DNA from: Phycisphaerales bacterium
GTDB taxonomy: Bacteria; Planctomycetota; Phycisphaerae; UBA1845
DNA: 64,000 nucleotides
Direction: 5' to 3'
Assembly (NCBI GenBank): GCA_020639095.1
Contig: JACKHH010000005.1
Span: 56,574 to 120,573 of the forward strand
Shown: positions 1 through 30,645 of the stretch, in pieces
Numbering within the stretch: the stretch's first letter is position 1
How the letters are laid out: the number at the start of each line of letters is the position of its first letter
Made by a program: the position numbers and the translations under genes
Notes under the pieces: generated by a model
The model's input: the letters and a program-made list of their open reading frames with translations, nothing else
What the model was told of the DNA's origin: nothing
Database searches by the model: none

Positions 1-1
1 G

Positions 2-292
2 CTGTGCCATTCGCGGACGCGTGATCTTGCGGCGCTGGTGCGCGGTGCGGACATCATCATCGCTGCCGTTGGTAAACCCGAATTCATCGAAGCGGATTGG
101 GTGAAGCAGGGCGCGGTCGTCGTGGACGCGGGCTACAACCCGGGCAACGTGGGCGACGTCGACTTCGCAGGGGCTGCGGAGCGCGCATCACTGATCACCC
201 CTGTGCCTGGCGGCGTGGGTCCGATGACGATCGCGACGCTGATCGATCAGACTGCGGACGCGGCAGCGCAGCAACTGCGCGTTTCACTGTAG
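2..292 (+). CDS. folD: Bifunctional methylenetetrahydrofolate dehydrogenase/cyclohydrolase FolD, C-terminal part (5' end lies outside the window)
   Basis: The frame is open from position 2. The translation ...[28 protein letters not shown]...GYN...[14 protein letters not shown] matches conserved FolD C-terminal motifs. Stop codon at 290-292. Confidence 0.8.
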
Positions 293-551
293 CCTTTGGA
301 ATTGGCGCAGAGTTTTATCGGGCAAACTTTCGGCCTAATCGCCGCTCACATCACGAGTTAAATCTTCAATCCAAAATCAGCCACCGCGCTAGAATTCGGC
401 GGGTAAATCGGAGAGGCGTGAATTTCTCGTCGAGGTGCCCGAGCGCTGCGTTCGCGCTCCTGACGCTCGACGATGCCCGGCGGTGATGGTGCCGCCCGGC
501 AGTGTCAGATGGCGGCGTGAAAAGCCGCCCCGACTGCAAAGGGGGTCGAGA

Positions 552-1481
552 ATGGGCCTGTCTCGTCGTGGTTTCTTCCACACGCTGGGCGTCGTGGGGG
601 GCGGGACGCTCGCCAGCGCAACCTGCGCACGAGCCTCATCTGCCGGTCCGCAACGCGACCATTCCAACGACATGGGTGTGCTCGTCGATGTCACCAAGTG
701 CATCGGGTGTCGCCGCTGTGAGTACGCATGTCAGGAGGCGGCAGGGTTTGATCCCCCCGATATCGAATCATTCGAGGACAAGTCGGTGTTCGATGAGCAG
801 CGCCGACCAGTTGCACGCAGCCACACGGTGATCAACCGCTACAGCCGGCCCGACGGTTCGGGCCCGGTGTACAACAAGTTCAACTGCCTGCACTGCCTCG
901 ATCCCGCGTGTGCGTCCGCGTGTCTGGTCAGTGCATTCACCAAGAACGATACCGGACCGGTGGTGTACGATCCGAGTCGCTGCATGGGTTGTCGCTACTG
1001 CATGGTGGCGTGTCCGTTTGAGATTCCCACATACGACTACGACTATCCGCTGACGCCGCAGGTGCGCAAGTGCAACCTGTGCGCTCATCGTGTACCCAGC
1101 GAGCAGGAGTTGCCCGCGTGCGTGAAGATCTGCCCGGCAGAGGTGATGACCTACGGTCGGCGCGGTGATCTGCTCGAACTCGCGCACGAACGCATCGCGA
1201 ACAATCCGGACGTATACATCGATCACATCTACGGCGAGCACGAAGCCGGGGGCACGAGTTGGATGTGGATTTCCAACGTGCCCTTCGAGGAAATCGGTTT
1301 CCACAAAGTTGACAGCAAAGCGCCGCCGCGACGCACCGAGGCCATTCAGCACGGTGTTTTCAAGAATTTCCTGCCGCCGCTGATGTGGTACGGACTGCTC
1401 GGCGCGGCGATGTGGTTGACGCGGCCTGAGAAGAACGACGAATCGAAAGAGGGCGACCAGCACGCGGAGGTTCAATCGTGA
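552..1481 (+). CDS. Tat-exported 4Fe-4S ferredoxin-type subunit, NrfC/PsrB/HybA-like iron-sulfur protein
   Basis: AAAGGGGG ribosome-binding site at 539-546 and ATG at 552. Twin-arginine signal SRRGFFHTLGVVGGG. Several Cys clusters (CIGCRRCEYAC, CLHCLDPACASAC, CMGCRYCMVACP, CNLCAHRV...C..CP). The stop overlaps the next gene's start (1478). Confidence 0.85.
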   Translation: MGLSRRGFFHTLGVVGGGTLASATCARASSAGPQRDHSNDMGVLVDVTKCIGCRRCEYACQEAAGFDPPDIESFEDKSVFDEQRRPVARSHTVINRYSRPDGSGPVYNKFNCLHCLDPACASACLVSAFTKNDTGPVVYDPSRCMGCRYCMVACPFEIPTYDYDYPLTPQVRKCNLCAHRVPSEQELPACVKICPAEVMTYGRRGDLLELAHERIANNPDVYIDHIYGEHEAGGTSWMWISNVPFEEIGFHKVDSKAPPRRTEAIQHGVFKNFLPPLMWYGLLGAAMWLTRPEKNDESKEGDQHAEVQS

Positions 1482-2674
1482 GCGCGCATCATCATCCACC
1501 CCAGCCGATGAACCAGAAGCTGATCACGCCCGGCGTGCTGGTGCTGCTGATCCTGACCGGGATCGGTGTGTGCTTTGCGATCTGGCGTTTCATTTTCGGC
1601 ATCGGCTCGATTACAAACCTGGACAATCAGCATCCGTGGGGCATCTGGATCGCGATCGACGTGGCGACGGGCGTGGCGCTGGCGGCGGGTGGTTTCACAA
1701 CGGCTGCCCTGGCGCACATTTTCCATCGCGAGCACTATCACGCGGTGGTGCGGCCCGCACTGCTGACGGCGATGCTCGGGTACACGTTTGTGGGTCTCGG
1801 CTTGATGATTGACCTGGGTCGCTTCTACAACATCTGGCACCCGATTGTGCCGGCGATGTGGAGCGGTCACTCGGTGCTGTTCGAGGTCGGTTTGTGCGTG
1901 ATGTGCTACCTCACGGTGTTGTACATTGAGTTTTTGCCGATCGTGTGCGAGCGGTTGGAGAAGGAAGAGCGCTGGCCGCGTGTTCGCGTGTTCTGCATGA
2001 AGCTGAACGGGCTGGTCGGCAGGATCATGTTCTTCTTCATCATCGCGGGCGTCGTGCTCTCGTGTCTGCATCAGTCGTCGCTGGGCAACCTGATGGTGCT
2101 CGCCCCGTCGAAGATGCACGACCTGTGGGATACGCCGATTCTGTCGCTGCTATTCCTGCTTTCGGCATTCGCGGTCGGTTTTCCGATGGTGATCGTCGAG
2201 TCGATGGTGGCGTCGCGGTCGTTCAAGCTTAAACCGGAGATGCACATCCTCAGCCCCCTGGCGAAATTCGTGCCGGTATTGCTGGGGATATACCTTGGGT
2301 TCAAGGTGGGCGACCTCGCGGTGCGCGACAAGCTGAGCCTCATCGGCGAAGGCTCACCGCAGGCGACGATGTTCGTCGTTGAGATGGTGTTTGGGGTGAT
2401 CGCGCCGTTCATCATGCTGCTGTTCGCCCGCGTGCGAAAATCGCCGACGGGGTTGTTCATTGCGGCGCTCATGATCGTACTGGGCGTTGCGCTTAACCGA
2501 ATCAACGTATTCCTCGTCGCGTTTCAGCCGTTGTACCCGCAGAAGACCTACTTCCCGTCGATCGGAGAAGTGGCGGTGACCGTCGGTTTGATCTCGCTGC
2601 TGATCTTCTGTTATCGCGTCATCGTCAATTACTTCCCAGTTATCAGCCACCCCGGCCAAGCGAGAGCGACATGA
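1478..2674 (+). CDS. NrfD/PsrC-family polytopic membrane protein, quinol-interacting subunit
   Basis: 398 aa, highly hydrophobic with about 8-10 predicted TM helices. Translationally coupled to the upstream Fe-S gene and the downstream cytochrome gene (4-nt overlaps). This is the arrangement typical of NrfCD/PsrBC modules. Confidence 0.8.
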   Translation: MSAHHHPPQPMNQKLITPGVLVLLILTGIGVCFAIWRFIFGIGSITNLDNQHPWGIWIAIDVATGVALAAGGFTTAALAHIFHREHYHAVVRPALLTAMLGYTFVGLGLMIDLGRFYNIWHPIVPAMWSGHSVLFEVGLCVMCYLTVLYIEFLPIVCERLEKEERWPRVRVFCMKLNGLVGRIMFFFIIAGVVLSCLHQSSLGNLMVLAPSKMHDLWDTPILSLLFLLSAFAVGFPMVIVESMVASRSFKLKPEMHILSPLAKFVPVLLGIYLGFKVGDLAVRDKLSLIGEGSPQATMFVVEMVFGVIAPFIMLLFARVRKSPTGLFIAALMIVLGVALNRINVFLVAFQPLYPQKTYFPSIGEVAVTVGLISLLIFCYRVIVNYFPVISHPGQARAT

Positions 2675-3933
2675 ACGCCCGCAAGAGCATTGAACGGTTT
2701 TACTCGCGGCACCTGATCGGTTGCGTGTTGCTGATCGGAGGCTTGTCTCTGATCGGCGCCGTGCGTGCATCCGCACAGACGCAGGACAACGCACCGGTAG
2801 ATACGCCCGCACCCTCACCGCACGGCGCGGAGATCGCGGCGAAGGACTGCGCGAACTGCCACACCTGCGAGAAGCCGACGACCGACGAGCCGTGCTTGTT
2901 GCCGTGTTCGCGGCCCTCAACGGTAGCGATCGGACAGGCATTCAAGAGCAAAACAGGTCCCGACGTGGTGATCCTCGGTGAAATCGCGGACCGCTACCTC
3001 CCTGTGCCGTTCGACCACAAGGGGCACGCAGCCATGGCGGACATGACGCACGGTTGCGACGTGTGTCATCACTACACGCCGGAAGGGCTCGCGCACCCCG
3101 CGTGCAAGACGTGTCATGAGCTGAATCCCAAGCGCGTCGACATGCGCAAACCGAGCCTCAAAGGTGCGTATCACCGGCAGTGCATGAGCTGTCACCGCGA
3201 GTGGAGCGGAAACACCGAGTGCGGCGCGTGCCACGTGGAAACGGCGGACGCCAATGGCAACAAATCCGCGGTGCCGTCCAAGGACGACCTGATCGGCAGG
3301 ATGCACCCCCCGATTCAGGAACCGGAACTCCGCATTTACAAGACGAAGCTGGAAGGTCGCCCCAGCGCCGAAGTGCTCTTCCGTCACAAGGAGCACATTG
3401 ATCGTTATGGGATTTCCTGCGCGGAGTGCCATCGCGAGGACGGCTGCCAGCGCTGCCACAGCGATCAGAAGCAGCCCGAGCGCGTGCGTACGCTGGCCGA
3501 TCATCACAACCCGTGCGCTCGTTGCCACATGGATGTTGATCCGGCGAAAGAAGGCGCGAGTTGCGATGTGTGTCACTACGATCGGCGTACCGGCCCGCCG
3601 CGTCCATTCGAGCATCGCGTGAGCGATCTGCCGCTGATCAAGTATCACGCGGGTAACAGCTGTCGCGATTGCCACACGTCGCTGCCGTTCCAAAAGCTCG
3701 ATCGCGAATGCGGAACGTGTCACAAGGGCTGGTCGCAGGAGACTTTCGACCACGCAGCCGTTACCGGACAGACCCTCGACGACAATCACAAGGAAAACGA
3801 CTGTGCGGATTGCCACGTGGACCAGAAATACACGGTTCCGCCGGCGTGTGGTGAGTGCCACGACGAGGACGACGAACCGGTCATTCGTTTCCCCGATCGG
3901 CGGCCCGGTCCTTGGCGTCGGGCACCGTCGTAA
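2671..3933 (+). CDS. Multiheme c-type cytochrome, 13 CxxCH motifs, Sec signal peptide
   Basis: N-terminal signal LLIGGLSLIGAVRASAQ. Thirteen CxxCH sites counted by eye (CANCH, CDVCH, CKTCH, CMSCH, CGACH, CAECH, CQRCH, CARCH, CDVCH, CRDCH, CGTCH, CADCH, CGECH). Overlaps the NrfD-like gene by 4 nt. Confidence 0.85.
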   Translation: MNARKSIERFYSRHLIGCVLLIGGLSLIGAVRASAQTQDNAPVDTPAPSPHGAEIAAKDCANCHTCEKPTTDEPCLLPCSRPSTVAIGQAFKSKTGPDVVILGEIADRYLPVPFDHKGHAAMADMTHGCDVCHHYTPEGLAHPACKTCHELNPKRVDMRKPSLKGAYHRQCMSCHREWSGNTECGACHVETADANGNKSAVPSKDDLIGRMHPPIQEPELRIYKTKLEGRPSAEVLFRHKEHIDRYGISCAECHREDGCQRCHSDQKQPERVRTLADHHNPCARCHMDVDPAKEGASCDVCHYDRRTGPPRPFEHRVSDLPLIKYHAGNSCRDCHTSLPFQKLDRECGTCHKGWSQETFDHAAVTGQTLDDNHKENDCADCHVDQKYTVPPACGECHDEDDEPVIRFPDRRPGPWRRAPS

Positions 3934-4173
3934 CTTCAATTGCCAACTAACCTAGCGGCGATTCTCGTGTCTCCCTGTGAAAAGGCGGCGCGCGGTGCGC
4001 CGCCTGCTGGGGTGTTTGGCCCGCGCCGGTCGATCTTTACGGGCTCGTGGGCGCGTATTATGATCCCGGCAGTGCCGGAGTGGATTTGTGGACACGGTTA
4101 TGATGTGAAGATCACGAACCGTGGAGTGTCGACAACCGTCAATCGAAATAACAAAAGCAGAGGAGGCACGAAC

Positions 4174-4848
4174 ATGAGATCGATCCGGGTTATGGCAATC
4201 GTGGGACTGGTCGCCGCACTCGTGTGCGCGATGCAGTGGTCAACAACACCGGCGCAGGCGGGCGAGGGCACGACGATCTCGTCAGCGGCCGTCATCGCTG
4301 TGCTGGCCAGCGACGACAAGTACGAGTTCGAGGGCTCGAAGTCGTGCAAGAAGTGCCACATCAAGACATACAAGTCGTGGGAAGATACGCCGCACGCGAA
4401 GGCGCTCGAAACCTTAAAGCCGGGCAACGCCACCGAAGAGAAGGAAAAGCACAACCTCGATGCGGCGAAGGACTATTCGACCGATGAGAAGTGCCTCGCC
4501 TGCCACACCGTCGGTTACGGCAAGGCCGGTGGCTACGCGGTTCCCGACTCCGAGGACAAGAAGGCCGTCAAGGACGCTGAAGAGCGCGCGGGCGTGGGTT
4601 GCGAATCGTGCCACGGCGCGAGCAGCGGCTACATGGACCTGAAGGCCGAGATCAAGAAGGAAAAGCGTAAATACAAAACGTCGGAGCTGACGGCGCTTGG
4701 TCTGGTCGTGCCGACGGCTGAGACCTGCACGAAGTGCCACACCGAGGATCACCCGACGTTCGATCCGGAAGACAAGTTCGACTTCGACAAGATGAAAGAG
4801 AAGGGCCTGCACGAGATGGAAGGCCTGGAGCTGCGCGAGGACGAGTAA
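4174..4848 (+). CDS. Periplasmic tetraheme c-type cytochrome
   Basis: AGGAGG at 4161-4166 and ATG at 4174. Signal peptide MRSIRVMAIVGLVAALVCA. Four CxxCH sites (CKKCH, CLACH, CESCH, CTKCH). The ORF-track start at 3940 is a spurious 5' extension. Confidence 0.8.
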   Translation: MRSIRVMAIVGLVAALVCAMQWSTTPAQAGEGTTISSAAVIAVLASDDKYEFEGSKSCKKCHIKTYKSWEDTPHAKALETLKPGNATEEKEKHNLDAAKDYSTDEKCLACHTVGYGKAGGYAVPDSEDKKAVKDAEERAGVGCESCHGASSGYMDLKAEIKKEKRKYKTSELTALGLVVPTAETCTKCHTEDHPTFDPEDKFDFDKMKEKGLHEMEGLELREDE

Positions 4849-4894
4849 TCGCGTCCGCGACGCGGTTCACGCAGCAAGTTGTGACACCATCGGC

Positions 4895-4930
4895 GGCAGG
4901 GTTTGCAAGAGCAGACCCTGCCGTTTTTGT
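4895..4930 (+). terminator. Rho-independent terminator closing the 552-4848 cytochrome operon
   Basis: GGCAGGGT-(12 nt)-ACCCTGCC stem followed by GTTTTTGTG. Confidence 0.7.
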
Positions 4931-5059
4931 GTATCGGGTGCCAGCCGAGCGGTTGACGCGCGGTTGCCTGGATCGGTTCGAGGCGGTAGGGACAATTGGT
5001 GGTTGTAGCGCAAGAATCGGTTCTGCAGTCGCATATCGGTTCGAATTTCGCGGCGAGTC

Positions 5060-5299
5060 ATGGATAAGACGAGATTGCAGAATCTGCGGACGCAGTCGAT
5101 TCGAGCGTTGCCAGTTTGCGCAGTATTGCTGGTCTTGGTTGCGGGATTGCTGTTCGTCATCGGTCGGTATGTGACGATTCCGAGGTGGCTTGCCGCCGCA
5201 ATGTTGGGCGTGGGGATATTCACCGTTGCAGGCGATGCGATCAACATCGTTTACCTGACGCGCAGGCTGCGGCGCGTTGATCGCCGCGATACGGAATAG
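5060..5299 (+). CDS. Small hypothetical membrane protein (79 aa, 2 TM)
   Basis: ATG-initiated ORF with two hydrophobic helices (LPVCAVLLVLVAGLLFVIG, AAAMLGVGIFTVAG). Weak ribosome-binding site. Could be a spurious ORF. Confidence 0.3.
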   Translation: MDKTRLQNLRTQSIRALPVCAVLLVLVAGLLFVIGRYVTIPRWLAAAMLGVGIFTVAGDAINIVYLTRRLRRVDRRDTE

Positions 5300-5344
5300 C
5301 CATGCGTTACGCAGGAGAGCAGGGGAGACCGACCACGGTCGTCG

Positions 5345-6478
5345 CTACGGCAACCCGATTCCGATGGCATACAGGCTGATGTGCTTCTCGCCGAGGCTGT
5401 TGGCGACGAAGAGGTAGTATTGTGCCTCGAAGTTGTCGGGCACCAGTGCAGCGATGCCTGGCGGCAACGATTCGGCGACTGCGACGCCGACCGGCATGGG
5501 CGTGGCGCCGATGCCTTCATCTTCGCCGAGAAGCATGAGCAACTGGCCCTGCGCGTTGAACACGTGTACGCGGGAGAATTCGGGGTCGGCGACAAAGATG
5601 ACGCCATCCGGTCCCACCGCGAGGTGCCGGGGTTTTCCCATGTCGCCGTAACGATCGCCGGGCTGGCCCATGCTGATAAGCGGGCTGCCATCGGGCGTGA
5701 AGCCCTGGACCCGGCTGTTCATCATGTCGGAAACGAAGATGTTGCCCGCGCCGTCGACCGCGACACCCGCAGGGTAGTACAGCTTGCCCGCGTCGCTGCC
5801 CACGCCGCCGAACGACGAACGGGCTGCACCGCCGGGTATATCGAACACATCGATCTGGTGTGCCGCAACATCGGCGGCGAGCAGGGCTCCTGGGCGCGCC
5901 GCGATCGCGACGGGTCGGTACGCATCGCGACCGGCATTGAAGCGGTGCGGGTCCGCCCCCGGGGCGATGGCGACGATGTCGCCGCGATCCGCGTCCGCGA
6001 CGTACACGTTCCCATCGGCATCGGCGGCAACCGCCACCGGCTTTCCAAATGCGAGGTCGTCACCATTACCGAGCTTGCGAGCCTTACCGCTTTCCAAATC
6101 CCAATCATGCACCACGTTGGCGCCGGGGTCGCAGATGTACAGGTGATTGTCGCGGTACGCGATGCCGGCGGGGCGGGCGACGAACGGGCTCGCCAAACCG
6201 CCGCGCAGTGTGTCGGTCCAATGTTCGCCCACCCGCACCAGATCGTCCAGCGCGTTGAACGTTTTCAGGTGGACGACGTGGGCTGTTGCGTTCTTCGGGA
6301 AGTACGCGAGATCAGCCGTGATCGGTCGCGAAGCACAGCCCGTCAGAATCGAGACGCAAAGAGCGCCCGCGAACAGGCTCAAGCAGCGCGAACGGGCTCG
6401 CGACGTGGAAGACTTGATTGCGGATCGATCGGCGATGGGGCGGTTTCGCACGGTTATTTCCTGTGGCAGGTGAGGCAC
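5345..6478 (-). CDS. NHL-repeat (six-bladed beta-propeller) lipoprotein
   Basis: Lipobox LTGCAS after a hydrophobic signal. Repeated NHL-type blades (YICDPGANVVHDWD, VYVADADRGDIV, IFVSDMMNSRVQGF, IFVADPEFSRVHVF). Its start overlaps the end of the upstream cytochrome gene. Confidence 0.8.
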   Translation of the reverse strand: MPHLPQEITVRNRPIADRSAIKSSTSRARSRCLSLFAGALCVSILTGCASRPITADLAYFPKNATAHVVHLKTFNALDDLVRVGEHWTDTLRGGLASPFVARPAGIAYRDNHLYICDPGANVVHDWDLESGKARKLGNGDDLAFGKPVAVAADADGNVYVADADRGDIVAIAPGADPHRFNAGRDAYRPVAIAARPGALLAADVAAHQIDVFDIPGGAARSSFGGVGSDAGKLYYPAGVAVDGAGNIFVSDMMNSRVQGFTPDGSPLISMGQPGDRYGDMGKPRHLAVGPDGVIFVADPEFSRVHVFNAQGQLLMLLGEDEGIGATPMPVGVAVAESLPPGIAALVPDNFEAQYYLFVANSLGEKHISLYAIGIGLP

Positions 6479-7113
6479 AGGGCGCTGCCCGCGTTGCTCA
6501 TCACCAGCATGTGGTTGTAGCCGGATTCGTTATGCGGATCGTGGCACGAGAGGCACTCGACATATCCGTCGGGCAGCACGACCGCGCCGCTCGAAGTCAC
6601 GCGCGTGACCGGGTGATAGTCGTGCCCAAACCCGGGATAGGGAATTCCCACCGGATGGTTCGACCGGCCATGGCCCGCGACGCGCGTGCTCGGATGGAAC
6701 GTGTTCACCGGGCGCTCTTCGGAGATCGTCGGGATCATGTCGCTGGCGAGCGCACCGTCGTGGCAGCGCAGGCAAGTCAGCGTACCGGCACCCGGGTCGA
6801 AAATGCGACCCGCAAGGCGACGTCTGCCCGTGGGGTCGTTCGTCGTGGACATGTCGCGACGATTGAGCCGGCGCGTTTGCGCGGCTGTCGTGCCGAAACG
6901 GCGCGAGAGGTCGGCATTGGGATTCCACAACGGCCCCTGCTTGGGTGGTGTTTCCTGGTGGGGCGTGTGGCACGCGCCGCAGTTGTCATCCTTGGACCAC
7001 GCGGCGTTACTGAAATCGTGTTTGGAACCCTTGATGCCCGCCGTCGCGATGCCGGCGATCAGCAGCAGCGCACCCGGCAGGACGAGTTTCGAAATCCTAG
7101 CCGCTCGCTTCAT
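6454..7113 (-). CDS. Tetraheme c-type cytochrome (periplasmic)
   Basis: ATG at 7113..7111 sits in an ATGA overlap with the stop of the upstream 12-heme gene. Signal MKRAARISKLVLPGALLLIAGIATA. Four CxxCH sites (CGACH, CLRCH, CLSCH, CLTCH). The ORF-track start at 7380 is an antisense 5' extension. Confidence 0.8.
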   Translation of the reverse strand: MKRAARISKLVLPGALLLIAGIATAGIKGSKHDFSNAAWSKDDNCGACHTPHQETPPKQGPLWNPNADLSRRFGTTAAQTRRLNRRDMSTTNDPTGRRRLAGRIFDPGAGTLTCLRCHDGALASDMIPTISEERPVNTFHPSTRVAGHGRSNHPVGIPYPGFGHDYHPVTRVTSSGAVVLPDGYVECLSCHDPHNESGYNHMLVMSNAGSALCLTCHRK

Positions 7114-8918
7114 CGGTTCGCTCCCGTAATGCTCCTGCGGGTGCTCGTAACCCCTTTGGCTGAGCCGGTGCCCGCGTACGGATACCCAATGTGCGTCGAG
7201 CCGTGGCAGACCAACGTGCAGTTGCCCGCCAAACGACCCGTGTCTTCGTATTGCAGCAGACGACCAGTGCCGGTATCGGCTGCACTGACCACTGAAAGAT
7301 CGAAGTTGATCAGGTTGCTGTGATTGTTCGCATTGCCCTGACCGCGATAGACGCCGTGCGCGTCGTGGCACACACTGCACGGCGTGCGGAAGTCGACGAC
7401 GTGCCGGCGATGCAGCGGGAAGCTCTCATTGTTGAGGATGCTGTCGCGGCTGTGGCAACTGTAGCAGAGCGAGTACGCGTCAGCGCTTTCCGCGGTGAAG
7501 TCCGCTGTTTCATAGTTGCGAACGAGCAGCGGTTCATACAGCGAACCGTGCGGACCGTTGGCCCCGGTACCACCGGCGAAGCGCGCGTTGTCGCTGTTGT
7601 GGCAGTCGATGCACGTCACTGTGCTGCCGACACGCAGCGGGGCGATGAGGCTTACCACGTCGTTGTTGCGCCGTGGCCCAGCGACCGGGTGGAATGACGG
7701 GTTCGACGTCTGGAACTCGAGTCGCGTGTTCGTCTGCGTGACCTGCCGCGAATTCGCCTGTCGCGGCCGCAGCACACCGTCGCTGTGGCACTTGAAGCAG
7801 ATCTCGTAGCCGAACTGGGCTTCATCGATCGCGCGTCCGGTGATGGTGATGCCGTTCACACCGACGTTCGGACCCTTCACGGTCTGGCCGAGTGTGCCCT
7901 GCACGGCGCCGATGTTCCGCTCACGCGAGGCATGCGGATTATGGCAATCGACGCACTCGGCGTGCCGTGACATGTTAAAGGGCGTTTCCTCCGGATCGTG
8001 GATGCCGGTGCGCCAGCGGCTGTCGTGATTGCTGCGCTTGCCGAGATCGGCAGCGATGTTGTAACGCGCGACGTCGCCGCTGTGGCAGTTCAGGCAGTTG
8101 TCCTCCTCACGCTGGAAACGCAGCAGCCGTTCGCGCTGCGGCGCGGAGTGGATCTTGTGGCAACTCGCGCACGCGTTGTCCGCGACCGTCGAATACTTGA
8201 GTCGCTCACGCGGATCGACCGCACGCCCGCTGATCGTCTTCTTGCTCAGACCGTGCGCGCCGTGGCGCCAGCCGTTCATCTCGTGGCAGGAGACGCAGAT
8301 CGCGGACATCTGATCGGTGACGCGAAGGAACTCGCCGAGTTCGTTGTTGTGCGGATCGTGGCAGGTCGTGCAATGTACTTCGGCATGCACGCCCAGCGGC
8401 AACTCGCGCGAGACCACCTCGGGCGGACGGATTTCGCTGTCGACGTTGGCAAGCTGACGATCGTAACGGAACCCGATGGGGTGATCGTCTGAGAGGTCGT
8501 TGGTGAGATCGCTGTTCGCGTCGAACCGGCCCGGGGGCATGGTCCGCGCGGTCATGACGATCGGCTCGGTGATCGGACGCGAAAGCACGTTGCCCAGCGC
8601 GAGCGAACCGTCGTGACAGCTCAGGCACATTTTCGACGGGCCCGACGGCTGATCGATGCGCGCGTCGGTCGTCGAGCTTTCGTAGATGCGGTAGTAAAGC
8701 TGCGGATCCTCACGGTTCCACAGCGGCGTTTGCGGGGCTGCGTTGTGCGGCGTGTGGCAGAAGATGCACACCTCGTCCTCGTGGACAGCCCGGATACGAT
8801 TCGGCCCGCGCGCTGAGAGATCGTGCGGCGAGTTGACCACGGACTCGTCCGCGTAGGCGGCTGACGCGATCAGCCACACGATTCCACAGCCCATTGCTCG
8901 AAGCGCGACGTGCTTCAT
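7110..8918 (-). CDS. Dodecaheme c-type cytochrome (602 aa), Sec signal
   Basis: Signal MKHVALRAMGCGIVWLIASAAYA. Twelve CxxCH sites counted (CIFCH, CLSCH, CTTCH, CVSCH, CASCH, CLNCH, CVDCH, CFKCH, CIDCH, CYSCH, CSVCH, CTLCH). ATGA overlap with the NHL gene upstream (8915-8918). Confidence 0.85.
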   Translation of the reverse strand: MKHVALRAMGCGIVWLIASAAYADESVVNSPHDLSARGPNRIRAVHEDEVCIFCHTPHNAAPQTPLWNREDPQLYYRIYESSTTDARIDQPSGPSKMCLSCHDGSLALGNVLSRPITEPIVMTARTMPPGRFDANSDLTNDLSDDHPIGFRYDRQLANVDSEIRPPEVVSRELPLGVHAEVHCTTCHDPHNNELGEFLRVTDQMSAICVSCHEMNGWRHGAHGLSKKTISGRAVDPRERLKYSTVADNACASCHKIHSAPQRERLLRFQREEDNCLNCHSGDVARYNIAADLGKRSNHDSRWRTGIHDPEETPFNMSRHAECVDCHNPHASRERNIGAVQGTLGQTVKGPNVGVNGITITGRAIDEAQFGYEICFKCHSDGVLRPRQANSRQVTQTNTRLEFQTSNPSFHPVAGPRRNNDVVSLIAPLRVGSTVTCIDCHNSDNARFAGGTGANGPHGSLYEPLLVRNYETADFTAESADAYSLCYSCHSRDSILNNESFPLHRRHVVDFRTPCSVCHDAHGVYRGQGNANNHSNLINFDLSVVSAADTGTGRLLQYEDTGRLAGNCTLVCHGSTHIGYPYAGTGSAKGVTSTRRSITGANR

Positions 8919-10015
8919 GACCTGTTCCCGAGATAGTCAAACACCTGGATGCGGTGATTCGCGGAATCCGCCACCCAGATTCGATTGTTTTCGTCGATCG
9001 CCAGACCTGCGGGCAGGGCGAACTTGCCCGCGGTGTTGCCTTCCTGGCCGAAGGCGATCAACAAGGCTCCATTCTGATTGAACACCTGTACGTTCTCGAA
9101 CTGCGCGTCAACAACGTACAAATGCCTGTCGCCGTCGAACGCGACGCCCTTGGGCAGCGCGAAGTCCCCGGCAGCGTCGCCCTTGCGCCCGATCGCGCCG
9201 ACGAAATTGCCGTCGAGATCGAGTAGCTGCACGCGGAAGTTCGCGGAATCCGCTACTGCGATGCGCTCCGCGCCGTCCCAGGCGATGTGCGTGGGGCGGT
9301 TGAACGCGCCTCCGTCATTGCCGGGCCTGCCGATGCGGCGAATCAGTCTACCCGACGGGCTGAAGACGACGATGTCATTCGTGCCGCCGTCGACGACGTA
9401 AAGCTGATCACGCGTCGCGACGTATGCCAAGCCCACCGGCCTGTCCAACACGTCCGCACCGAAACGATGCCGCATATCACCGGCTTCGTCAAACTCAAGC
9501 ACTTCGCGGCGCTTGGCATCGGTAACAAAGATGCGACTGCCCACGAAACAAGCGCCGATCGGCGCGCCCAAGCGCTGGTCTTCCCAGCCAGTGACGAGGC
9601 GGTGCGTTCGCTCCACCAGGTTCACAATGTGCACGCCCGCAACGCCGACGTCCGCAACCGCGAGCAAGGGGCCCTTGCGTGCGAGCGAATGCGGCGACGA
9701 AAACTTGATCGGGCGACGGTTGCCGCGAAGCGCGGCTTGAAACGCTTCGCCACCGGACTTGCCGGCTTCCAGGTCGTCGCTACCGCTCAGCACGCCGACA
9801 AAACGAATGCGTGCGGGCTCGGGCGGTTTCGGCCAGACGCGCGTTTCGCCGCGCTGGCTGAAGAGTTCGCCCTTGGGTTGCGCGCATCCGGTGAACAACG
9901 TTGCGGCCAATACCGCTGCGAAAGCCCTCGTTGTTCTCCGCTCCCTGACAGTCGCGGCTCGGATTTTGCTTGCTCCTGCGCGCATCTGTTTGAGATTAGT
10001 TCCGCGCCAGGACAT
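8915..10015 (-). CDS. NHL-repeat beta-propeller lipoprotein
   Basis: Lipobox LFTGCAQ. NHL blades (IFVTDAKRREVLEFD, LYVVDGGTNDIVVF, IAVADSANFRVQLLD, LYVVDAQFENVQVFN, IWVADSANHRIQVFD). Overlaps the end of the beta-barrel gene by about 20 nt. Contains one copy of the 35-nt repeat (9931-9965). Confidence 0.8.
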   Translation of the reverse strand: MSWRGTNLKQMRAGASKIRAATVRERRTTRAFAAVLAATLFTGCAQPKGELFSQRGETRVWPKPPEPARIRFVGVLSGSDDLEAGKSGGEAFQAALRGNRRPIKFSSPHSLARKGPLLAVADVGVAGVHIVNLVERTHRLVTGWEDQRLGAPIGACFVGSRIFVTDAKRREVLEFDEAGDMRHRFGADVLDRPVGLAYVATRDQLYVVDGGTNDIVVFSPSGRLIRRIGRPGNDGGAFNRPTHIAWDGAERIAVADSANFRVQLLDLDGNFVGAIGRKGDAAGDFALPKGVAFDGDRHLYVVDAQFENVQVFNQNGALLIAFGQEGNTAGKFALPAGLAIDENNRIWVADSANHRIQVFDYLGNRS

Positions 10016-12128
10016 TTTCGAAATCGCGCCTCAACCGGAAATACACACCAACGTCGTCTTCCTCGCTGCCGGGTACGTCCAAGCGGTCGTACTCCACCAC
10101 GAATTCCGCGGTGAGTTCGCCGATCGCGTAATCAAAACCAGCCGACACGTCCCACGCGTTCGTCGTGCCGCGCACCGAGTCGTCCTGCCAACGGTAGGTG
10201 ACGCGCTCAAACGACGAGAGGCTTTCACGCAGGTACCAGCGGTGGTCAAGCTGAAGGTCGAGCCATGACACGTTGCGCTGATCCACGCCGCCTTCAAAGA
10301 AGAAGCGCGAGAACCGCACGGACGCGTCGAGCGAATGTTCCGACGTCTGAATGAAGCGATATAGACCGTTGAGGTGGAAGGCGTCGAAGGGCTCGACGGT
10401 GTCGTCGTAGATTTCGTACTCCGCGCCCAGCGTATACTTGGGCTGCTCGTAGCGAATACCGATGCGGTGGTGGTTTGTGCGATCGGCGTAGCGGGCGAAG
10501 CCGCGTGAGTAATCGGCTTCCTGGTTGCGGTACGAGAGGCGATAGTACGGCGTCAAGCCGTTGTCGAAACGCTGTTCGAGGCTGAAGTCGACCCGCATGG
10601 TGTCGAGCTTGCCGTCGGCTGGCGTCGAGTATTCGTAGTCAATCAGAATCGTTTCGTCATCGAGAATGCGCCCGGTCGCGATGCGGGAAATCTGCGTCCA
10701 CTGGCCGACCGTGACAATGAGGTAGTCGCGCAATGGCTGATATACCCGGCGATTCGCGGAATCGGTGACCACGATCGTGCCCGGAATCACGTTCGCATGT
10801 CGCAGCGTGATCTGCGTCGGGCCGCGGAACGTGGCGGACTCATTGAGCACCACGCGCGAACCGTTGTCACCGTTGACATCCTCCGTGTCGTACGCCAGTG
10901 CGAGGTTCGCCCACAACTGACCGTAGGGATTCTTGCGGTTGTACTGCCAATCAATCAATGCACCGTACTGCGTCGTTTGCACGTCGTTGTCAATGTCCTC
11001 ATACAGCCCGAACACGTCGACGGTCGTGGTAAGGTTCGTATAAAGCTGATGAATAAGCTGGAAGTCGGCGCGGTGCGTCGAGATGTCGTAGGCTTCGTAT
11101 TTCTCGCGATTGAACTGGTAGCGGTAGATCGTTGAAAGGTTGTCGTTGTGCTTCAACGTCAACTGCGGGCCGATTTCGAAGATGTCGCGGGCGAAGTCGC
11201 CGCTCTCTTCCTGCCAACGCATCCGCGTCCACAATTCATTCGCGTCGTCGGTACCGAAGGTGAACCGATCGTCGACAATGATCAGGTCGCGCGTGGTTTC
11301 GTAGGCATCGCGCAGGCCCTGATATTCCTGCTTGTTTTCCGCGTGTTCATACGTCGCGTTGATCGTGTGGTTTCGCGAGACCGTCCAGTCGACGCCATAG
11401 TTCAGCGTGCTGTCGGTGTAGTGCTCGTCGTCGTAGCGATCGCGATTGCCCGTGCGGTCGGTTTCGAGGTAGTCGTACCGCAGGTGCATCGAGAGGTCGT
11501 CCGCCACGTAGCTCCAGTCGGTACCGAAGCCGGTCTGGCGTTCGTCGAGCGACGGCTGGAAGCGGCGATTGATGCGATCGTCGCGGCGGATGGCGTACAC
11601 CGAACCCGAAAGCGGTTTGCCCTGGAAGAAGTTCATCCGCGCGTCGTAGAGCAGCAGCGTTCCGCTGTCATCGTCGCTGTAGTCCGCGGTGGGGCTGCGT
11701 TCGGAAAAGTGACTTTGCGTCAGGGCAAAGCTGAGATCGGCTTGGAAGGTGATGAAGCTTGGGTCGATGATCGTTCCGCCAAGACCAAGGCCGAAGCGCT
11801 CTTCGATATTCACATCGCGATTGGTTTGTGACCACTGCCGCCGGCCTTGCCTGCGCTGGCGAAGCTCGGAACGCACGCGCGTCTGATCAAACTGGGTTTC
11901 GAGTTCGAGGTAGCCGTCGAGGCGGTCGAGTGAGAAGTAACGCGGGCGTTCGCTGTCGTTGACCTCGTCGCTTTCATCCTGCGCAGCCGCGGAGGTCGCT
12001 GCAATAAGCAGCGTTGCGACGAACAGTGAAAAAGGGAACCGAACGGGGTTAGACCGCATGCCCATGATCGCTGCGTGCATCACATTCCTTAGAGCCATGG
12101 TCCGCGCCAAACAGACTCGTAGCCGCAC
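9996..12128 (-). CDS. Outer-membrane beta-barrel protein (about 690-710 aa), porin-like component of a putative porin-cytochrome conduit
   Basis: Probable start at the internal Met (about 12059) giving signal MRSNPVRFPFSLFVATLLIAATSAAAQ. The rest is rich in alternating aromatic/polar residues (Y, W, D, T, R) with no long hydrophobic helices, as in large beta-barrels of MtrB/OmbB-like size. It is the first gene of the minus-strand cytochrome/NHL operon. Confidence 0.6.
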   Translation of the reverse strand: MRLRVCLARTMALRNVMHAAIMGMRSNPVRFPFSLFVATLLIAATSAAAQDESDEVNDSERPRYFSLDRLDGYLELETQFDQTRVRSELRQRRQGRRQWSQTNRDVNIEERFGLGLGGTIIDPSFITFQADLSFALTQSHFSERSPTADYSDDDSGTLLLYDARMNFFQGKPLSGSVYAIRRDDRINRRFQPSLDERQTGFGTDWSYVADDLSMHLRYDYLETDRTGNRDRYDDEHYTDSTLNYGVDWTVSRNHTINATYEHAENKQEYQGLRDAYETTRDLIIVDDRFTFGTDDANELWTRMRWQEESGDFARDIFEIGPQLTLKHNDNLSTIYRYQFNREKYEAYDISTHRADFQLIHQLYTNLTTTVDVFGLYEDIDNDVQTTQYGALIDWQYNRKNPYGQLWANLALAYDTEDVNGDNGSRVVLNESATFRGPTQITLRHANVIPGTIVVTDSANRRVYQPLRDYLIVTVGQWTQISRIATGRILDDETILIDYEYSTPADGKLDTMRVDFSLEQRFDNGLTPYYRLSYRNQEADYSRGFARYADRTNHHRIGIRYEQPKYTLGAEYEIYDDTVEPFDAFHLNGLYRFIQTSEHSLDASVRFSRFFFEGGVDQRNVSWLDLQLDHRWYLRESLSSFERVTYRWQDDSVRGTTNAWDVSAGFDYAIGELTAEFVVEYDRLDVPGSEEDDVGVYFRLRRDFENVLARN

Positions 12129-12340
12129 GCATACTCCGTCCTCATTTCATCGGAAACGTATACGGGCGTTGATAAGCCTCTGCAAGCATAAACTGCGCGA
12201 GATTGTCTTTGCGATACTGATGAACGGGTCGAAGCCAGGGCGTACGCCGACCACCCGAGGTGAACGCCGAGACTTAAGACTCTTGCCGCGGCGAGGCGGC
12301 GACCGATTCTAGTATGGTTCTGGAAATTCGCTGCTTGAAA

Positions 12341-12369
12341 TTGACAACAATGTGCCTATGTTAGCATAG
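12341..12369 (+). promoter_or_regulatory. Candidate promoter with operator-like palindrome upstream of the pentaheme lipoprotein cytochrome gene
   Basis: TTGACA at 12341-12346. The palindrome CTATG-TTAG-CATAG at 12356-12369 overlaps a TAGCAT -10-like hexamer. AAAGGAG ribosome-binding site at 12391-12397 precedes ATG 12405. Confidence 0.35.
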
Positions 12370-12404
12370 CCATCAGATCAGCGCCGCCGAAAGGAGTCCG
12401 TGGC

Positions 12405-12992
12405 ATGCGCAAACTTCTCTGCGCGTTGGCAGTTTCTTCCTTCGCAATCGCCGTCGTGCTGGGCTGCGCTGCCGATACGCGCGACCGGCTTACCCGGTTC
12501 TTCTTCGAGGTTCCGGACGAGAGCGCGGAAGCGTCGGCTGAGAAGTCGTTCCCCACGCAGACCCCGCCACCGGAAATCAAGTTTCCTCCGCCGCGTTTCG
12601 CGTCATTGCACGATCCGTACGTCGAAAAGCAGTGCGACGCGTGCCACGACATGTCAGCGAAAATGGAGGTCAACAAGGATTTGCAGGCCTCGTGCGGCGA
12701 GTGTCACGACGACTACTTCGACAACGATGAAATCAAGCACGACCCGGTGGCTGAGGGCGATTGCCTGATGTGCCATTTGCCGCATCGCAGCGAGTACCCG
12801 GCGTTGCTGCGCCAGCCGGTGCTCGCAACCTGTTCAGATTGCCACGACGAACCGGCAGACCTGAGCGAGCCCGCCCATGCGGGCAAGGGCGCGGAGAACT
12901 GCACCACGTGCCACGATCCGCACTTCGGCGGCGAGCACTTGCTCAAAGCCGACTACAAAGGGCCAAAGGCCGCGGACGAGTCGGACGAATAA
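12405..12992 (+). CDS. Pentaheme c-type cytochrome lipoprotein
   Basis: Signal plus lipobox AVVLGCAAD. Five CxxCH sites (CDACH, CGECH, CLMCH, CSDCH, CTTCH). Good ribosome-binding site. Confidence 0.85.
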
Positions 12993-13072
12993 ATAAGATG
13001 AGCGGTACGCGGGCAGGTTTCGCCCGGGCGTGCCCAGCACTGCGTTCGCAGAAAACTCGACGGAGATTCGCC

Positions 13073-13648
13073 ATGTTGAAGAAGTCGGCCAACGGTTCAT
13101 CACGCAAAATGGTTCGTAAGTCCTGCGCTGTTGCGGCGCCCGTCGCATTGTTGTTTGCCGCGATGGTGCTCTGCGCCGGGTCCAGTGGCTGCGGAGCGAA
13201 CGCCGACGACATCCTCTTTCAAAGCCTGACCGCGACCGGCAACACCGCGTTCGATCTGCTGCTCACCGAGTTCGCCAACCAGGTGGCGGACGCCCTCAAT
13301 CCCGCACCGGTTGATGACGGTAACAATGACGGTGATGGGGACGGCGACGGTGATGGAGACGGCGATGGTGATGGAGACGGAGATGGCGATGGTGACGGTG
13401 ATGGGGATGGCGACGGCGGCGACGTGATTCCGATGGGTGACGCGGTCGCCGGCGAAGCAACCTTTGTGGCCGATGGCTGCAACCTGTGCCACGGCGATGC
13501 GGGACAGGGCGTATCGGCCCCCGCGCTCGCGGGCAACAATGAGTTGAGCGATCTCGAAACCCGTTTCGGCGGCGGGGCGAGCCACTTCGGCAAGACGCTG
13601 AGCGATCAGGATATCGAAGACGTCGCGACCTGGCTGCTCTCGTTGTAG
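13073..13648 (+). CDS. Monoheme class-I c-type cytochrome with signal peptide and a poly(Asp-Gly) linker
   Basis: ATG at 13073 (alternative ATG at 12998). Signal ...VALLFAAMVLCAGSSGC. (DG)n tract of about 30 residues encoded at about 13327-13420. A single CNLCH heme site followed by a Met-containing C-terminal segment. Confidence 0.7.
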   Translation: MLKKSANGSSRKMVRKSCAVAAPVALLFAAMVLCAGSSGCGANADDILFQSLTATGNTAFDLLLTEFANQVADALNPAPVDDGNNDGDGDGDGDGDGDGDGDGDGDGDGDGDGDGGDVIPMGDAVAGEATFVADGCNLCHGDAGQGVSAPALAGNNELSDLETRFGGGASHFGKTLSDQDIEDVATWLLSL

Positions 13649-19803: not shown

Positions 19804-19916
19804 TCCTGAATACGGAGCAACCAGCCCGACGAGTTTACTGCGCAGCAGCGCAAAGCATTACACGCGGAGGACACGCGCTGCCACCAGCCAAATGCACGCG
19901 GCGGCTGGCAATAACC

Positions 19917-22859: not shown

Positions 22860-22930
22860 CGGCCCGGTATCGTTGACGAATCCGCGCGATTTCGCAACCG
22901 CTAAATCACCGCCGGCGGCCCGTTCGCCGA

Positions 22931-30569: not shown

Positions 30570-30645
30570 GTGTGAGAAGCTCAATGGTCGAGCAACACGA
30601 CTTAGGATCGTGCTGGTGCGGGTTCGAATCCCGCCTCAAACACCA
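30570..30645 (+). tRNA. tRNA-like gene (76 nt, encoded CCA). Anticodon loop reads UAG (Leu), but the variable loop is short like a class-I tRNA and there is a G3:A70 mismatch. Possible pseudo-tRNA or tRNA-derived attachment site
   Basis: Manual cloverleaf: acceptor GTGTGAG/CTCAAAC with one mismatch, D-stem GCTC/GAGC, anticodon stem CACGA/TCGTG with loop CTTAGGA, 5-nt variable loop, T-arm GCGGG-TTCGAAT-CCCGC, discriminator A, CCA. Confidence 0.45.

Follow-up and report, generated by a model that had tools for sequence, protein, structure and literature searches.

A three-gene cassette joining HybAB/HmcBC-like subunits to a 13-haem cytochrome c in a Phycisphaerales bacterium: a probable quinone:multihaem-cytochrome oxidoreductase

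We focus here on a gene cassette in a 64,000-nt stretch of DNA from a Phycisphaerales bacterium (assembly GCA_020639095.1, contig JACKHH010000005.1, positions 56,574-120,573, forward strand). This whole stretch is referred to as the window, and its numbering is used throughout. The cassette consists of three genes, A, B and C, flanked by a folD-like gene and a c554-like gene (gene D), and it sits in an island with approximately 77 CxxCH motifs, whose products include one NapC/NirT-like protein and a pair of proteins resembling CbcL. The features are as follows.

293..551, + strand: upstream intergenic region of 259 nt, between the 3' end of the folD-like gene and gene A
552-1481, + strand: gene A, Tat-signal 4x[4Fe-4S] protein, 309 aa (from the ORF, motifs and profiles)
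1478-2674, + strand: gene B, NrfD-superfamily membrane subunit, 398 aa, GTG start
2671-3933, + strand: gene C, cytochrome c with 13 CxxCH motifs, 420 aa
4036..4064, + strand: sigma-70-like promoter, TTTACG-N17-TATGAT, 110 nt upstream of gene D
4174..4848, + strand: gene D, tetrahaem c554-family cytochrome, 224 aa (from Pfam, PDB and four CxxCH motifs)
4892..4935, + strand: intrinsic terminator with a 15-bp GC-rich stem (4892-4925), a 4-nt loop and a T-run

Genes A, B and C are joined by 4-nt overlaps, GTGA spanning the stop codon of gene A and ATGA that of gene B, so that the translational coupling of the Fe-S, NrfD-like and 13-haem genes proposed in a preliminary description of this DNA holds at both junctions. 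AGGGGG lies 6 nt ahead of the gene A ATG. The region at 293..551 is presumed to carry the promoter and 5'UTR of the cassette; a promoter scan of positions 1-5400 found no consensus within it, and the only promoter-like match in the scanned stretch is that at 4036..4064, between genes C and D. The mechanically called ORF of gene D begins at 3940, but the true start is almost certainly the ATG at 4174, which has GGAGG 8 nt upstream and opens a putative signal peptide (MRSIRVMAIVGLVAALVCA...AQA). The C-D gap is 240 nt long. In the otherwise divergent C-D gaps of two related genomes (loci L001 and L002), the sole conserved block is CTTTAC...GGGCGCG.(T/A)TTA(T/C)GAT, and since a promoter is thus conserved within the gap, gene D is probably transcribed also, or separately, from a promoter of its own. 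As first described, the tetrahaem gene is followed by a clean terminator (folding energy -30.7 kcal/mol, z = -5.3; none of 200 shuffled sequences was as stable). The further proposal of one terminated operon holds only in part, in view of the 240-nt gap and the conserved promoter of gene D.

The product of gene A begins with MGLSRRGFFHTLG, a twin-arginine motif, and its 16 Cys fall into four groups of the ferredoxin type, placed as in E. coli HybA, with which it shares 34% identity over its full length, including the C-terminal tail. Among the NCBIfam models, HmcB is its best match (343.6 bits, cut-off 420), HybA comes close to its cut-off but stays below it (244.1 versus 263 bits), and NrfC and QrcC score 72.6 bits (cut-off 377.6) and 57.9 bits (cut-off 400); the top PDB match is FdnH (1KQF, 7e-33). 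We thus predict a Tat-exported, periplasm-facing electron-transfer subunit of the HybA/HmcB type that has a hydrophobic segment at its C-terminus as an anchor. For gene B, the best profile match is HybB (375.7 bits, cut-off 450), followed by HmcC (296.3 bits, cut-off 550) and QrcD (126 bits, cut-off 570), and identity to E. coli HybB is 36% (E 7e-74). It scores 76 bits against Pfam NrfD, gave no match to the NrfD equivalog model at E <= 0.01, and aligns with E. coli NrfD by BLASTP only marginally (E 0.001 over 158 aa). Hydropathy indicates about 10 transmembrane helices, versus 8 in NrfD, and the only relative in the PDB is ActC (6F0K_C, E 1e-4). All 19 of the gene B homologues sampled match the HybB, HmcC and QrcD models, and only three match the NrfD model.

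Genes A and B thus fall in the HybA/HybB-HmcB/HmcC clade, and the label "NrfC/NrfD-type" that they were first given is too coarse, since profiles and identity place both subunits among HybAB/HmcBC with NrfD as a marginal relative. As neither reaches any curated equivalog cut-off, we extrapolate what they do from relatives with 31-36% identity. HybB R89, Y99, E148 and H184 are proton-pathway residues that have been functionally tested in E. coli. Their counterparts in gene B, R92, Y102, E151 and H198, are invariant in our alignment A2 and retained in 74-80 of the 82 sequences of a wider alignment. Gene B is predicted to be a cofactor-less subunit that interacts with quinone, and within the NrfD superfamily it belongs to the HybB/HmcC branch.

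Gene C has exactly 13 CxxCH motifs, and searches of its sequence for CxxCK, Cx3-4CH and CX15CH-type motifs found none; CxxCK is likewise absent from gene D. The protein starts with a signal/anchor helix and a haem 1 with a Cys-rich motif, followed by an Hmc/9Hcc-like tetrahaem c3 domain (residues ~96-192) and c7/GSU1996-like domains (~218-400). Its homologues are HmcA, 9Hcc and GSU1996, only electron-carrier class III cytochromes. The KPGLKGAYHRQCMxCH motif is common to gene C and the C-terminal c3 domain of HmcA/9Hcc, and scores against the curated models are low (54 bits for HmcA, in a single domain, cut-off 400; 44 bits for 9HemeCytC, cut-off 640). The AF2 model is of moderate quality (pLDDT 70.8). 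Across the family, 13 CxxCH motifs and 13 further, non-motif (distal) His are invariant, a count that suggests bis-His ligation at all 13 haems, and three additional conserved Cys beside haem 1 could form an unusual ligand or site. Given the lack of a reductase-type haem motif and the 13 invariant His per 13 haems, gene C is probably a pure electron carrier, and we agree with the original reading on both counts: the cytochrome has no CxxCK catalytic haem, and an electron-transfer-only module rather than a terminal reductase describes it best. Gene D, which would be secreted, is a candidate periplasmic shuttle; it scores 78.8 bits against Pfam Cytochrome_C554 (gathering score 20.8) and matches N. 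europaea c554 in the PDB (1BVB, 2e-23).

The A-B-C cassette is retained in at least 544 species genomes spread over about ten phyla, and its cytochrome has 13 haems in every case. The hosts include Planctomycetota, Ignavibacteria and Zixibacteria and are not sulfate reducers. The order is A-B-C in about 70 of 79 loci, which come from at least 10 phyla, and C-A-B in four. The NrfD-like and 13-haem proteins are fused in P0263, a fusion reproduced in two assemblies, and again in P0246. A sister clade of cassettes (e.g. L036) has the same 13-haem cytochrome with a B subunit that reaches 552 bits against the HmcC cut-off of 550, and there the order is the hmc-like C-A-B. CbcL-like proteins repeatedly adjoin the cassette, and a gene D homologue lies within 10 kb at about 10 of 79 loci. 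Other multihaem genes are absent from that distance at 48 of the 79. No HmcDEF-like genes adjoin the cassette in the window. Neither the window nor 80 related loci yielded an NrfA or a hydrogenase, the latter sought by tblastn using HybO and HybC of E. coli as queries, and no formate dehydrogenase was found in the 80 loci. The preliminary description had the module feeding the neighbouring conduit, a cluster of NHL, multihaem and 30-strand-barrel genes at 5345-12992, and this relationship is not conserved: of 79 loci, only about 4 have conduit genes at a distance of 10 kb or less from the cassette. In CP070744, a 5.7-Mb genome, more than 570 kb separate the two.

Taken together, we consider it probable that A, B and C are the three subunits of an inner-membrane quinone:multihaem-cytochrome oxidoreductase of the Hmc/Nhc/Hyd-2 type. 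Its 13-haem cytochrome would stand where the known systems have a hydrogenase or a cytochrome with 9 or 16 haems. Gene B would bind menaquinone or menaquinol. Gene A, on the periplasmic face and anchored by its C-terminal helix, would relay electrons through four [4Fe-4S] clusters, and gene C, tethered by its N-terminal helix, would exchange them with other cytochromes of the periplasm, in one direction or the other, along 13 bis-His haems. Its partners in this genome would include gene D and the cluster of NHL, multihaem and beta-barrel genes at 5345-12992, and possibly further proteins. We infer complex formation with gene A, the quinone chemistry, the partners and the direction. The conserved HybB proton-pathway residues suggest that turnover is probably proton-coupled, conserving or consuming proton motive force (pmf) depending on direction. 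For this cytochrome-rich island, we lean modestly towards quinol oxidation with outward electron flow. The earlier label of quinol dehydrogenase presumes that direction, although the nearest characterised relatives (Hyd-2, Hmc, Nhc and Qrc) are quinone reductases, whose electrons enter the quinone pool or cross the membrane.

The same complex could work in reverse, as a cytochrome:menaquinone oxidoreductase like Nhc, Qrc and Hyd-2 that uses or generates pmf. The quinone pool would then be filled from periplasmic or extracellular donors, among them Fe(II), reduced humics, a cathode, a partner cell, and H2 or formate by way of soluble cytochromes. We regard this as rather unlikely. In its favour, HybAB, HmcBC/NhcBC and QrcCD all act so, the pmf-linked residues of HybB are kept, and gene D is similar to N. 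europaea c554, a protein that takes electrons from HAO in the direction of the quinone pool. What weighs against it is the setting, as CbcL-like proteins recur beside the cassette and a NapC/NirT-like protein is also near in the window, both families being outward-transfer quinol oxidases in model organisms; host lineages are moreover mostly organoheterotrophs, and the 80 loci contain neither hydrogenase nor formate dehydrogenase.

The other two readings give the cytochrome a different role. In the first, gene C would act as the terminal reductase for some soluble or colloidal acceptor (a metal, nitrite/hydroxylamine or a sulfur compound, for instance), which would make ABC a complete quinol:substrate reductase like NrfABCD or MccACD. 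In favour of this reading are the cassettes that stand alone, without another multihaem gene nearby, at 48 of 79 loci, the conserved Cys cluster beside haem 1 and the ability of bis-His multihaem cytochromes to reduce metals non-specifically. We nevertheless judge it highly improbable, because CxxCK and CX15CH-type motifs are absent, the invariant distal His equal the haems in number at exactly 13, homology is restricted to electron-carrier class III cytochromes and insoluble acceptors are out of reach from the periplasm; the lack of a catalytic haem thus favours a quinone:multihaem-cytochrome oxidoreductase. Least credible of all is that A and B serve as membrane module to an enzyme encoded elsewhere, either a [NiFe] hydrogenase like those of group 2 or another periplasmic dehydrogenase, with the cytochrome as an accessory. 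HybB does top the gene B profiles and gene A comes near the HybA cut-off, but the scores stay under the equivalog cut-offs, a search of the whole 64-kb window and of the 80 loci found no HybO/HybC-like sequence, and gene C is translationally coupled to B and in some genomes fused to it.

To our knowledge, Shewanella, Geobacter and Desulfovibrio are the only bacteria in which the routes of extracellular and periplasmic electron transfer have been mapped well, and we know of no defined gateway like CymA, ImcH or CbcL in Phycisphaerae, Ignavibacteria, Zixibacteria and related phyla. These three groups are abundant and mostly uncultured members of sludge, sediment and aquifer communities, and the cassette offers a concrete, testable candidate for the inner-membrane entry or exit point in them. 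It is sharply defined, with three genes and always 13 haems in hundreds of species. We tentatively raise the possibility, as one somewhat short of an even chance, that it is a distinct, unnamed respiratory complex and the main pmf-coupled gateway between menaquinone and the electron-transfer chains of the periplasm or the exterior in Phycisphaerae, Ignavibacteria, Zixibacteria, Calditrichia, Gemmatimonadota and relatives. If so, it would be a functional counterpart of CymA, ImcH and CbcL, with the c3+c7-type 13-haem subunit serving as a membrane-tethered periplasmic wire. The cassette overturns no current idea. Most likely it varies the known Hmc/Nhc/Hyd-2 type and is not a separate new system, its composition having precedents in the literature.

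The closest of these precedents are Hmc (HmcABCDEF) and Nhc (NhcABCD) of Desulfovibrio, which have the same composition: as in that class, a class III multihaem cytochrome c, an HmcB-like Fe-S protein and a 10-helix NrfD-like protein are encoded together. On the other hand, the cytochromes of Hmc and Nhc have 16 or nine haems rather than 13, the domains of HmcA are not colinear with those of gene C, and the cassette is ordered B-C-A-like (Fe-S, membrane, cytochrome). All three proteins score below the curated equivalog cut-offs, so neither HmcB nor HmcC equivalogs are present, and HmcA, HmcD, HmcE (cytochrome b), HmcF (HdrD-like) and nine-haem NhcA are missing, as is NhcD, with no small membrane ORF between genes C and D. 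E. coli HybA and HybB resemble A and B in the Tat signal, the 16 Cys, the C-terminal anchor, approximately 10 helices, 34% and 36% identity and the required HybB residues, but their partner in Hyd-2 is the HybOC hydrogenase, here replaced by a 13-haem cytochrome, and the Hyd-2 equivalog cut-offs are not reached. HybAB with a hydrogenase, HmcBC with a 16-haem, NhcBC with a 9-haem and the cassette with a 13-haem cytochrome form a natural series that addresses how a quinone module is re-used with differing periplasmic partners, and how such a module is coupled to pmf.

More distant are NrfCD of E. coli and SirCD of Shewanella, which share with A and B the superfamilies of the four-cluster ferredoxin and the NrfD-like protein. 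NrfD and PsrC have 8 helices unlike gene B, to which they are only marginally similar, and NrfC lacks the C-terminal domain and anchor of gene A; the Nrf and Sir partners have catalytic haems (CxxCK in NrfA; SirA), whereas gene C has none, and neither NrfC and NrfD equivalogs nor NrfA accompany it. Experiments on SirCD show that a module of this kind can stand in for CymA as the electron source of periplasmic cytochromes. Of the ACIII and Qrc components, the molybdopterin-like ActB1/QrcB, the penta- or hexahaem ActA/QrcA and, for ACIII, ActD/E/F are absent from positions 1-5000. Gene D shares the four haems and the Cytochrome_C554 domain of N. europaea c554 but differs in having no HAO context and in scoring below the Nitrosomonas CycA equivalog cut-off (99.9 versus 400 bits). 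The gene order was initially set against that of Nrf, Sir, Psr and ACIII, the only systems then compared, but Hmc, Nhc, Cbc3 and Cbc4 share the composition, and order varies within the family. Cbc3 (CbcVWX) and Cbc4 (CbcSTU) of Geobacter sulfurreducens are likewise three-gene Fe-S, membrane and multihaem c modules, putative menaquinol:cytochrome c oxidoreductases that have been proposed as gateways from menaquinone to periplasmic cytochromes in extracellular electron transfer. The likeness is one of composition and, for Cbc3, of listed order, which is that of the cassette; unlike gene C, CbcX has 5 haems and CbcS is a NapC/NirT-type tetrahaem protein with a membrane anchor. Finally, Fe-S, NrfD-like and multihaem clusters have already been described in the genomes of MBNT15 SHF-111, Melioribacter roseus and Ca. 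Methanoperedens, where they are hypothesised to be quinol:electron-acceptor reductases that supply multihaem cytochromes of the periplasm with electrons for reducing metals. As judged from the genome descriptions only, with 3-6 haems in Methanoperedens, these clusters resemble the cassette and may include true members of the 13-haem family.

The best-supported reading of genes A, B and C, which together form a cassette, is that of a three-subunit quinone:multihaem-cytochrome oxidoreductase in the architectural class of Hmc and Nhc, the Desulfovibrio multihaem transmembrane complexes, and of Escherichia coli hydrogenase-2 (Hyd-2, with its membrane module HybA/HybB). The functional guess of the preliminary description, a quinol dehydrogenase module that distributes electrons, was essentially right, and ORF listing and motif counting confirm the four plus-strand genes on which it was built:

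552-1481, plus strand: gene A, 309 aa, Tat-exported 4x[4Fe-4S] protein; its N-terminus, MGLSRRGFFHTLG, is a twin-arginine signal
1478-2674, plus strand: gene B, 398 aa, NrfD-superfamily membrane subunit; GTG start overlapping the stop of A (GTGA)
2671-3933, plus strand: gene C, 420 aa, 13-haem cytochrome; ATG start overlapping the stop of B (ATGA)
From 3940 as a mechanical ORF, plus strand: gene D, tetrahaem cytochrome; credible start at ATG 4174, with a GGAGG ribosome-binding site and a signal peptide
4892-4925: strong terminator, a 15-bp hairpin with a T-run

The 16 cysteines of A fall into four ferredoxin-type groups, positioned as in E. coli HybA. The GTG start of B is supported by the residues before the first internal Met, which already align to E. 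coli HybB. D has four CxxCH motifs and belongs to the c554 family (Pfam, 78.8 bits; PDB 1BVB at 2e-23). The terminator hairpin (−30.7 kcal/mol, z = −5.3) was matched in stability by none of 200 shuffles. The four genes had been taken as one terminated operon, and both genes and terminator stand, but D very likely has a promoter of its own, since the 240-nt gap between C and D contains the sole sigma-70-like match within positions 1-5400 (TTTACG-17-TATGAT at 4036-4064), which is also the only conserved block when this gap is aligned to its counterparts in two related genomes. As no terminator separates C from D, read-through from one to the other is possible. Rfam found no family within 1-5400 and just a tRNA at 30570.

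A and B were placed by curated NCBIfam profile scores and pairwise comparisons (E. coli proteins from MG1655).

Scores of A and B against curated NCBIfam models
A, HmcB model: 343.6 bits (cut-off 420)
A, HybA model: 244.1 bits (cut-off 263)
A, NrfC model: 73 bits (cut-off 377.6)
A, DsrO model: 79 bits (cut-off 200)
A, QrcC model: 58 bits (cut-off 400)
B, HybB model: 375.7 bits (cut-off 450)
B, HmcC model: 296.3 bits (cut-off 550)
B, QrcD model: 126 bits (cut-off 570)

The NCBIfam models for NrfD, PsrC and DsrP gave no match to B. B aligns with E. coli HybB over its full length (36% identity, E 7e-74) and with E. coli NrfD marginally (E 0.001), while A shares 34% identity with HybA in an alignment that takes in the C-terminal domain and the hydrophobic tail, its alignment to NrfC being confined to the ferredoxin core. 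A phmmer search of the PDB with B gave no match, and with a profile of the B family the one match is ActC, from alternative complex III (6F0K_C, E 1e-4). To our knowledge, no structure exists for this clade. Profile scores and missing subunits rule out membership of the ACIII, Qrc, Psr and Dsr families. B has about 10 hydropathy peaks, as have HybB and NhcC, against 8 for NrfD and PsrC, the two helix classes distinguished for NrfD-type subunits in PMC8076601. In the account that PMC8076601 gives of Lubek et al. 2019, replacement of HybB R89, Y99, E148 and H184 reduces hydrogen oxidation, an effect relieved by a protonophore. These residues correspond to R92, Y102, E151 and H198 of B, which do not vary in a cross-phylum alignment of 19 sequences and are found in 74-80 of the 82 sequences of a broader alignment. 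The conservation of these proton-pathway residues of HybB suggests that the ABC complex would be coupled to the pmf.

By its profile and motif matches, C is a class III cytochrome. Searched as a single sequence, it finds the tetrahaem domain at the C-terminus of HmcA and of nine-haem cytochrome c, and a 114-sequence profile finds HmcA at 2.7e-28 over several domains and 9Hcc at about 1e-18, its residues ~218-368 matching fragments of the Geobacter dodecahaem GSU1996; the motif KPGLKGAYHRQCMxCH is common to C and HmcA. The CxxCH count is exactly 13, and all are kept in each of the 114 homologues. Exactly 13 non-motif histidines are likewise invariant in a 20-sequence alignment (H116, 119, 134, 168, 212, 239, 242, 278, 279, 315, 326, 361 and 373), 11 of them remaining so across all 114 sequences, where H212 and H278 still reach 90% conservation or more. 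Motif counting found no CxxCK or longer haem motif in C, which, together with these histidines, argues that all its haems would be bis-His electron carriers. Residues 60-79 (window 2848-2907) read C60xxC63H-x-C66-x8-C75-x3-C79, with three extra cysteines straight after haem 1. C66, C75 and C79 are invariant or nearly so among the 114 homologues and are dispensable for haem attachment; a disulfide, an unusual haem ligand and a metal site are possibilities for their role.

Homologues of C are widespread, with 637 matches in a word-indexed database, 142 clusters at 50% identity in an exhaustive search (E <= 1e-30) and at least 544 species genomes in a GTDB scan. Synteny was counted over the best 79 loci, using tblastn with the window proteins. 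These comprise 33 from Planctomycetota (mostly Phycisphaerae), 21 from Ignavibacteria, 8 from Zixibacteria, 2 from Gemmatimonadota and single ones from Calditrichia, Lentisphaeria, Verrucomicrobia, Marinimicrobia, Bacteroidota and Desulfobacterota-like lineages, the remainder being unclassified; the C homologues there are annotated merely as "cytochrome c3 family" or hypothetical. The order FeS-NrfD-cytochrome holds in about 70 of the 79, and four (L039-L042) have the hmc-like order cytochrome-FeS-NrfD. There are two cassette clades. In that of the window, HybB is the best-scoring model for B (354-376 bits); B of the second is 31-37% identical to the window protein and scores as HmcC, and at locus L036 B passes the HmcC equivalog cut-off (552 vs 550 bits). 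E. coli HybB and the two clades are mutually near-equidistant, at 31-37% identity. The cassette is tandemly duplicated in about six loci (L001/L006, L002, L008, L011, L021, L024), and the copies sometimes differ, one belonging to the HybB-like clade and the other to the HmcC-like clade. In the window the cassette occurs once; it is nearest to the first copy in L001 (92% identity in B) and is followed directly by the c554-like gene, which in L001 comes after copy 2.

B and C are also found as natural NrfD::13-haem fusions, P0263 (792 aa; L088:6001-8379) and P0246 (803 aa), each with the Fe-S gene before it; the P0263 gene has the same sequence in a JGI assembly and in an independent Logan one. 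At the fusion junction the N-terminal helix of C serves as a transmembrane linker, and the fusions provide Rosetta-stone evidence that B and C act as one complex. At L058:11315-13183, L043:11203-13095 and about 10 other Ignavibacteria and Calditrichia loci, genes for a sensor kinase and then a response regulator come after the cassette; the kinase, a HAMP-HisKA-HATPase protein with a single CxxCH motif, is a possible haem-based redox sensor that would control the cassette.

The cassette and D lie in an exceptionally cytochrome-rich island, with about 77 haem motifs in 25 kb in all. Beyond the terminator it comprises:

5345-12128, minus strand: putative conduit genes for an NHL lipoprotein, a 4-haem cytochrome, an 11-12-haem cytochrome, a second NHL lipoprotein and a 689-710-aa protein
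9996-12065, minus strand: the last-named of these proteins (about 690 aa, matching no Pfam family), called the barrel protein below
12405-12992, plus strand: 5-haem lipoprotein, divergent from the minus-strand conduit genes
17716-24940, minus strand: three putative quinone-interacting cytochromes, one NapC/NirT-type and two CbcL-like

The barrel protein (100% identical to NCBI H6817_03555) is confidently predicted as a beta-barrel of about 30 strands (pLDDT 86.6) with a small inserted domain at residues 403-461, and resembles large outer-membrane barrels, LptD and MtrB included, which makes a porin-cytochrome conduit plausible. Members of its family share 54-76% identity across many Phycisphaerae, a higher conservation than that of the surrounding cytochromes. 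Six genes (divergent 5-haem lipoprotein, barrel, NHL lipoprotein, ~600-aa 11-12-haem cytochrome, ~200-aa 4-haem cytochrome and second NHL lipoprotein) keep order and orientation between window 5345-12992 and L087 (CP070744, 2.735-2.757 Mb), and NHL-containing multihaem clusters of Desulfovibrio ferrophilus are reminiscent of them. The protein with the NapC/NirT N-terminus has 695 aa and 9-10 haems; the CbcL-like fusions join 19 and 11 haems to a b561-type (Ni_hydr_CYTB) membrane domain. At 13073-13648 (plus strand), inside ORF 12761-13648, a lipoprotein-like monohaem cytochrome c follows a long (Asp-Gly)n linker (DGDGDG...), and at 13843-17511 (minus strand) a secreted, multi-domain, apparently carbohydrate-active protein of 1222 aa with a dockerin-like C-terminus, probably unrelated to electron transfer, splits the island.

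The cassette had been proposed to feed this conduit. The two are adjacent here and in the closest relative, but only about 4 of the 79 loci (L006, L007, L012 and partly L069) have conduit genes at 10 kb or less from the cassette, and in the 5.67-Mb CP070744 the conduit cluster is at 2.74 Mb and two cassettes are at 1.97 and 2.16 Mb. The link is thus loose; cassette and conduit are independent, separately conserved modules, their adjacency happenstance. Genes of the c554-like type occur near the cassette in about 10 of the 79 loci, CbcL-like genes are near it in 17 of the 79 and directly downstream in 17 of 80 related loci, and in 48 of the 79 other multihaem genes are absent nearby. Neither a hydrogenase nor NrfA was found in the window or 80 related loci, and both were rejected as partners. 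Only one gene near any cassette hints at a catalytic-type cytochrome: it lies just 3' of the 13-haem gene in one Planctomycetota locus (L010:11464-12390) and is weakly similar to NrfA (22% identity, E 1.7e-4).

In the proposed mechanism, B would provide the quinone site, periplasmic A four [4Fe-4S] clusters and membrane-tethered C 13 haems, and the complex would exchange electrons with soluble or outer-membrane cytochromes. Since a cytoplasmic subunit (HmcEF) is absent, electrons would end at, or start from, the quinone pool, as has been proposed for Nhc. As to direction, the characterised relatives of ABC reduce quinone, and inward flow through ABC on to quinone is accordingly a serious, if somewhat less probable, reading. 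The genomic company (CbcL-like and NapC/NirT-like proteins, the porin-cytochrome cluster), on the other hand, speaks for outward flow, as do earlier genome-based proposals of quinol oxidation for similar clusters in MBNT15 (PMC9386147), Melioribacter (PMC3534657) and Methanoperedens (PMC7082337). Experimental support for this direction comes from Shewanella, where SirCD can replace CymA, as cited in PMC11434368. We thus lean towards outward flow by quinol oxidation.

Searches of the literature found nothing relevant on 13-haem (tridecahaem) cytochromes or on Mros_1570-1572, and the NrfCD cluster goes unmentioned in the multi-omics paper on Melioribacter. This kind of system is already known: PMC8076601 reviews Hmc and Nhc, and in Geobacter both Cbc4 and Cbc3, which combines FeS, a membrane subunit and a 5-haem c, are recognised as putative menaquinol:cytochrome c oxidoreductases. 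"Fe-S + NrfD-like + multihaem" clusters have also been pointed out in genome papers; the novelty initially argued for was overstated. What is new is that a specific 13-haem family, strongly conserved and with a chimeric c3+c7-type cytochrome, is now delineated; also new are its association with membrane modules of two related clades, the breadth of the cassette over about ten phyla, and the B::C fusions. As the 13-haem cassette falls below the curated cut-offs of every named family, it is a variant of this known kind of system.
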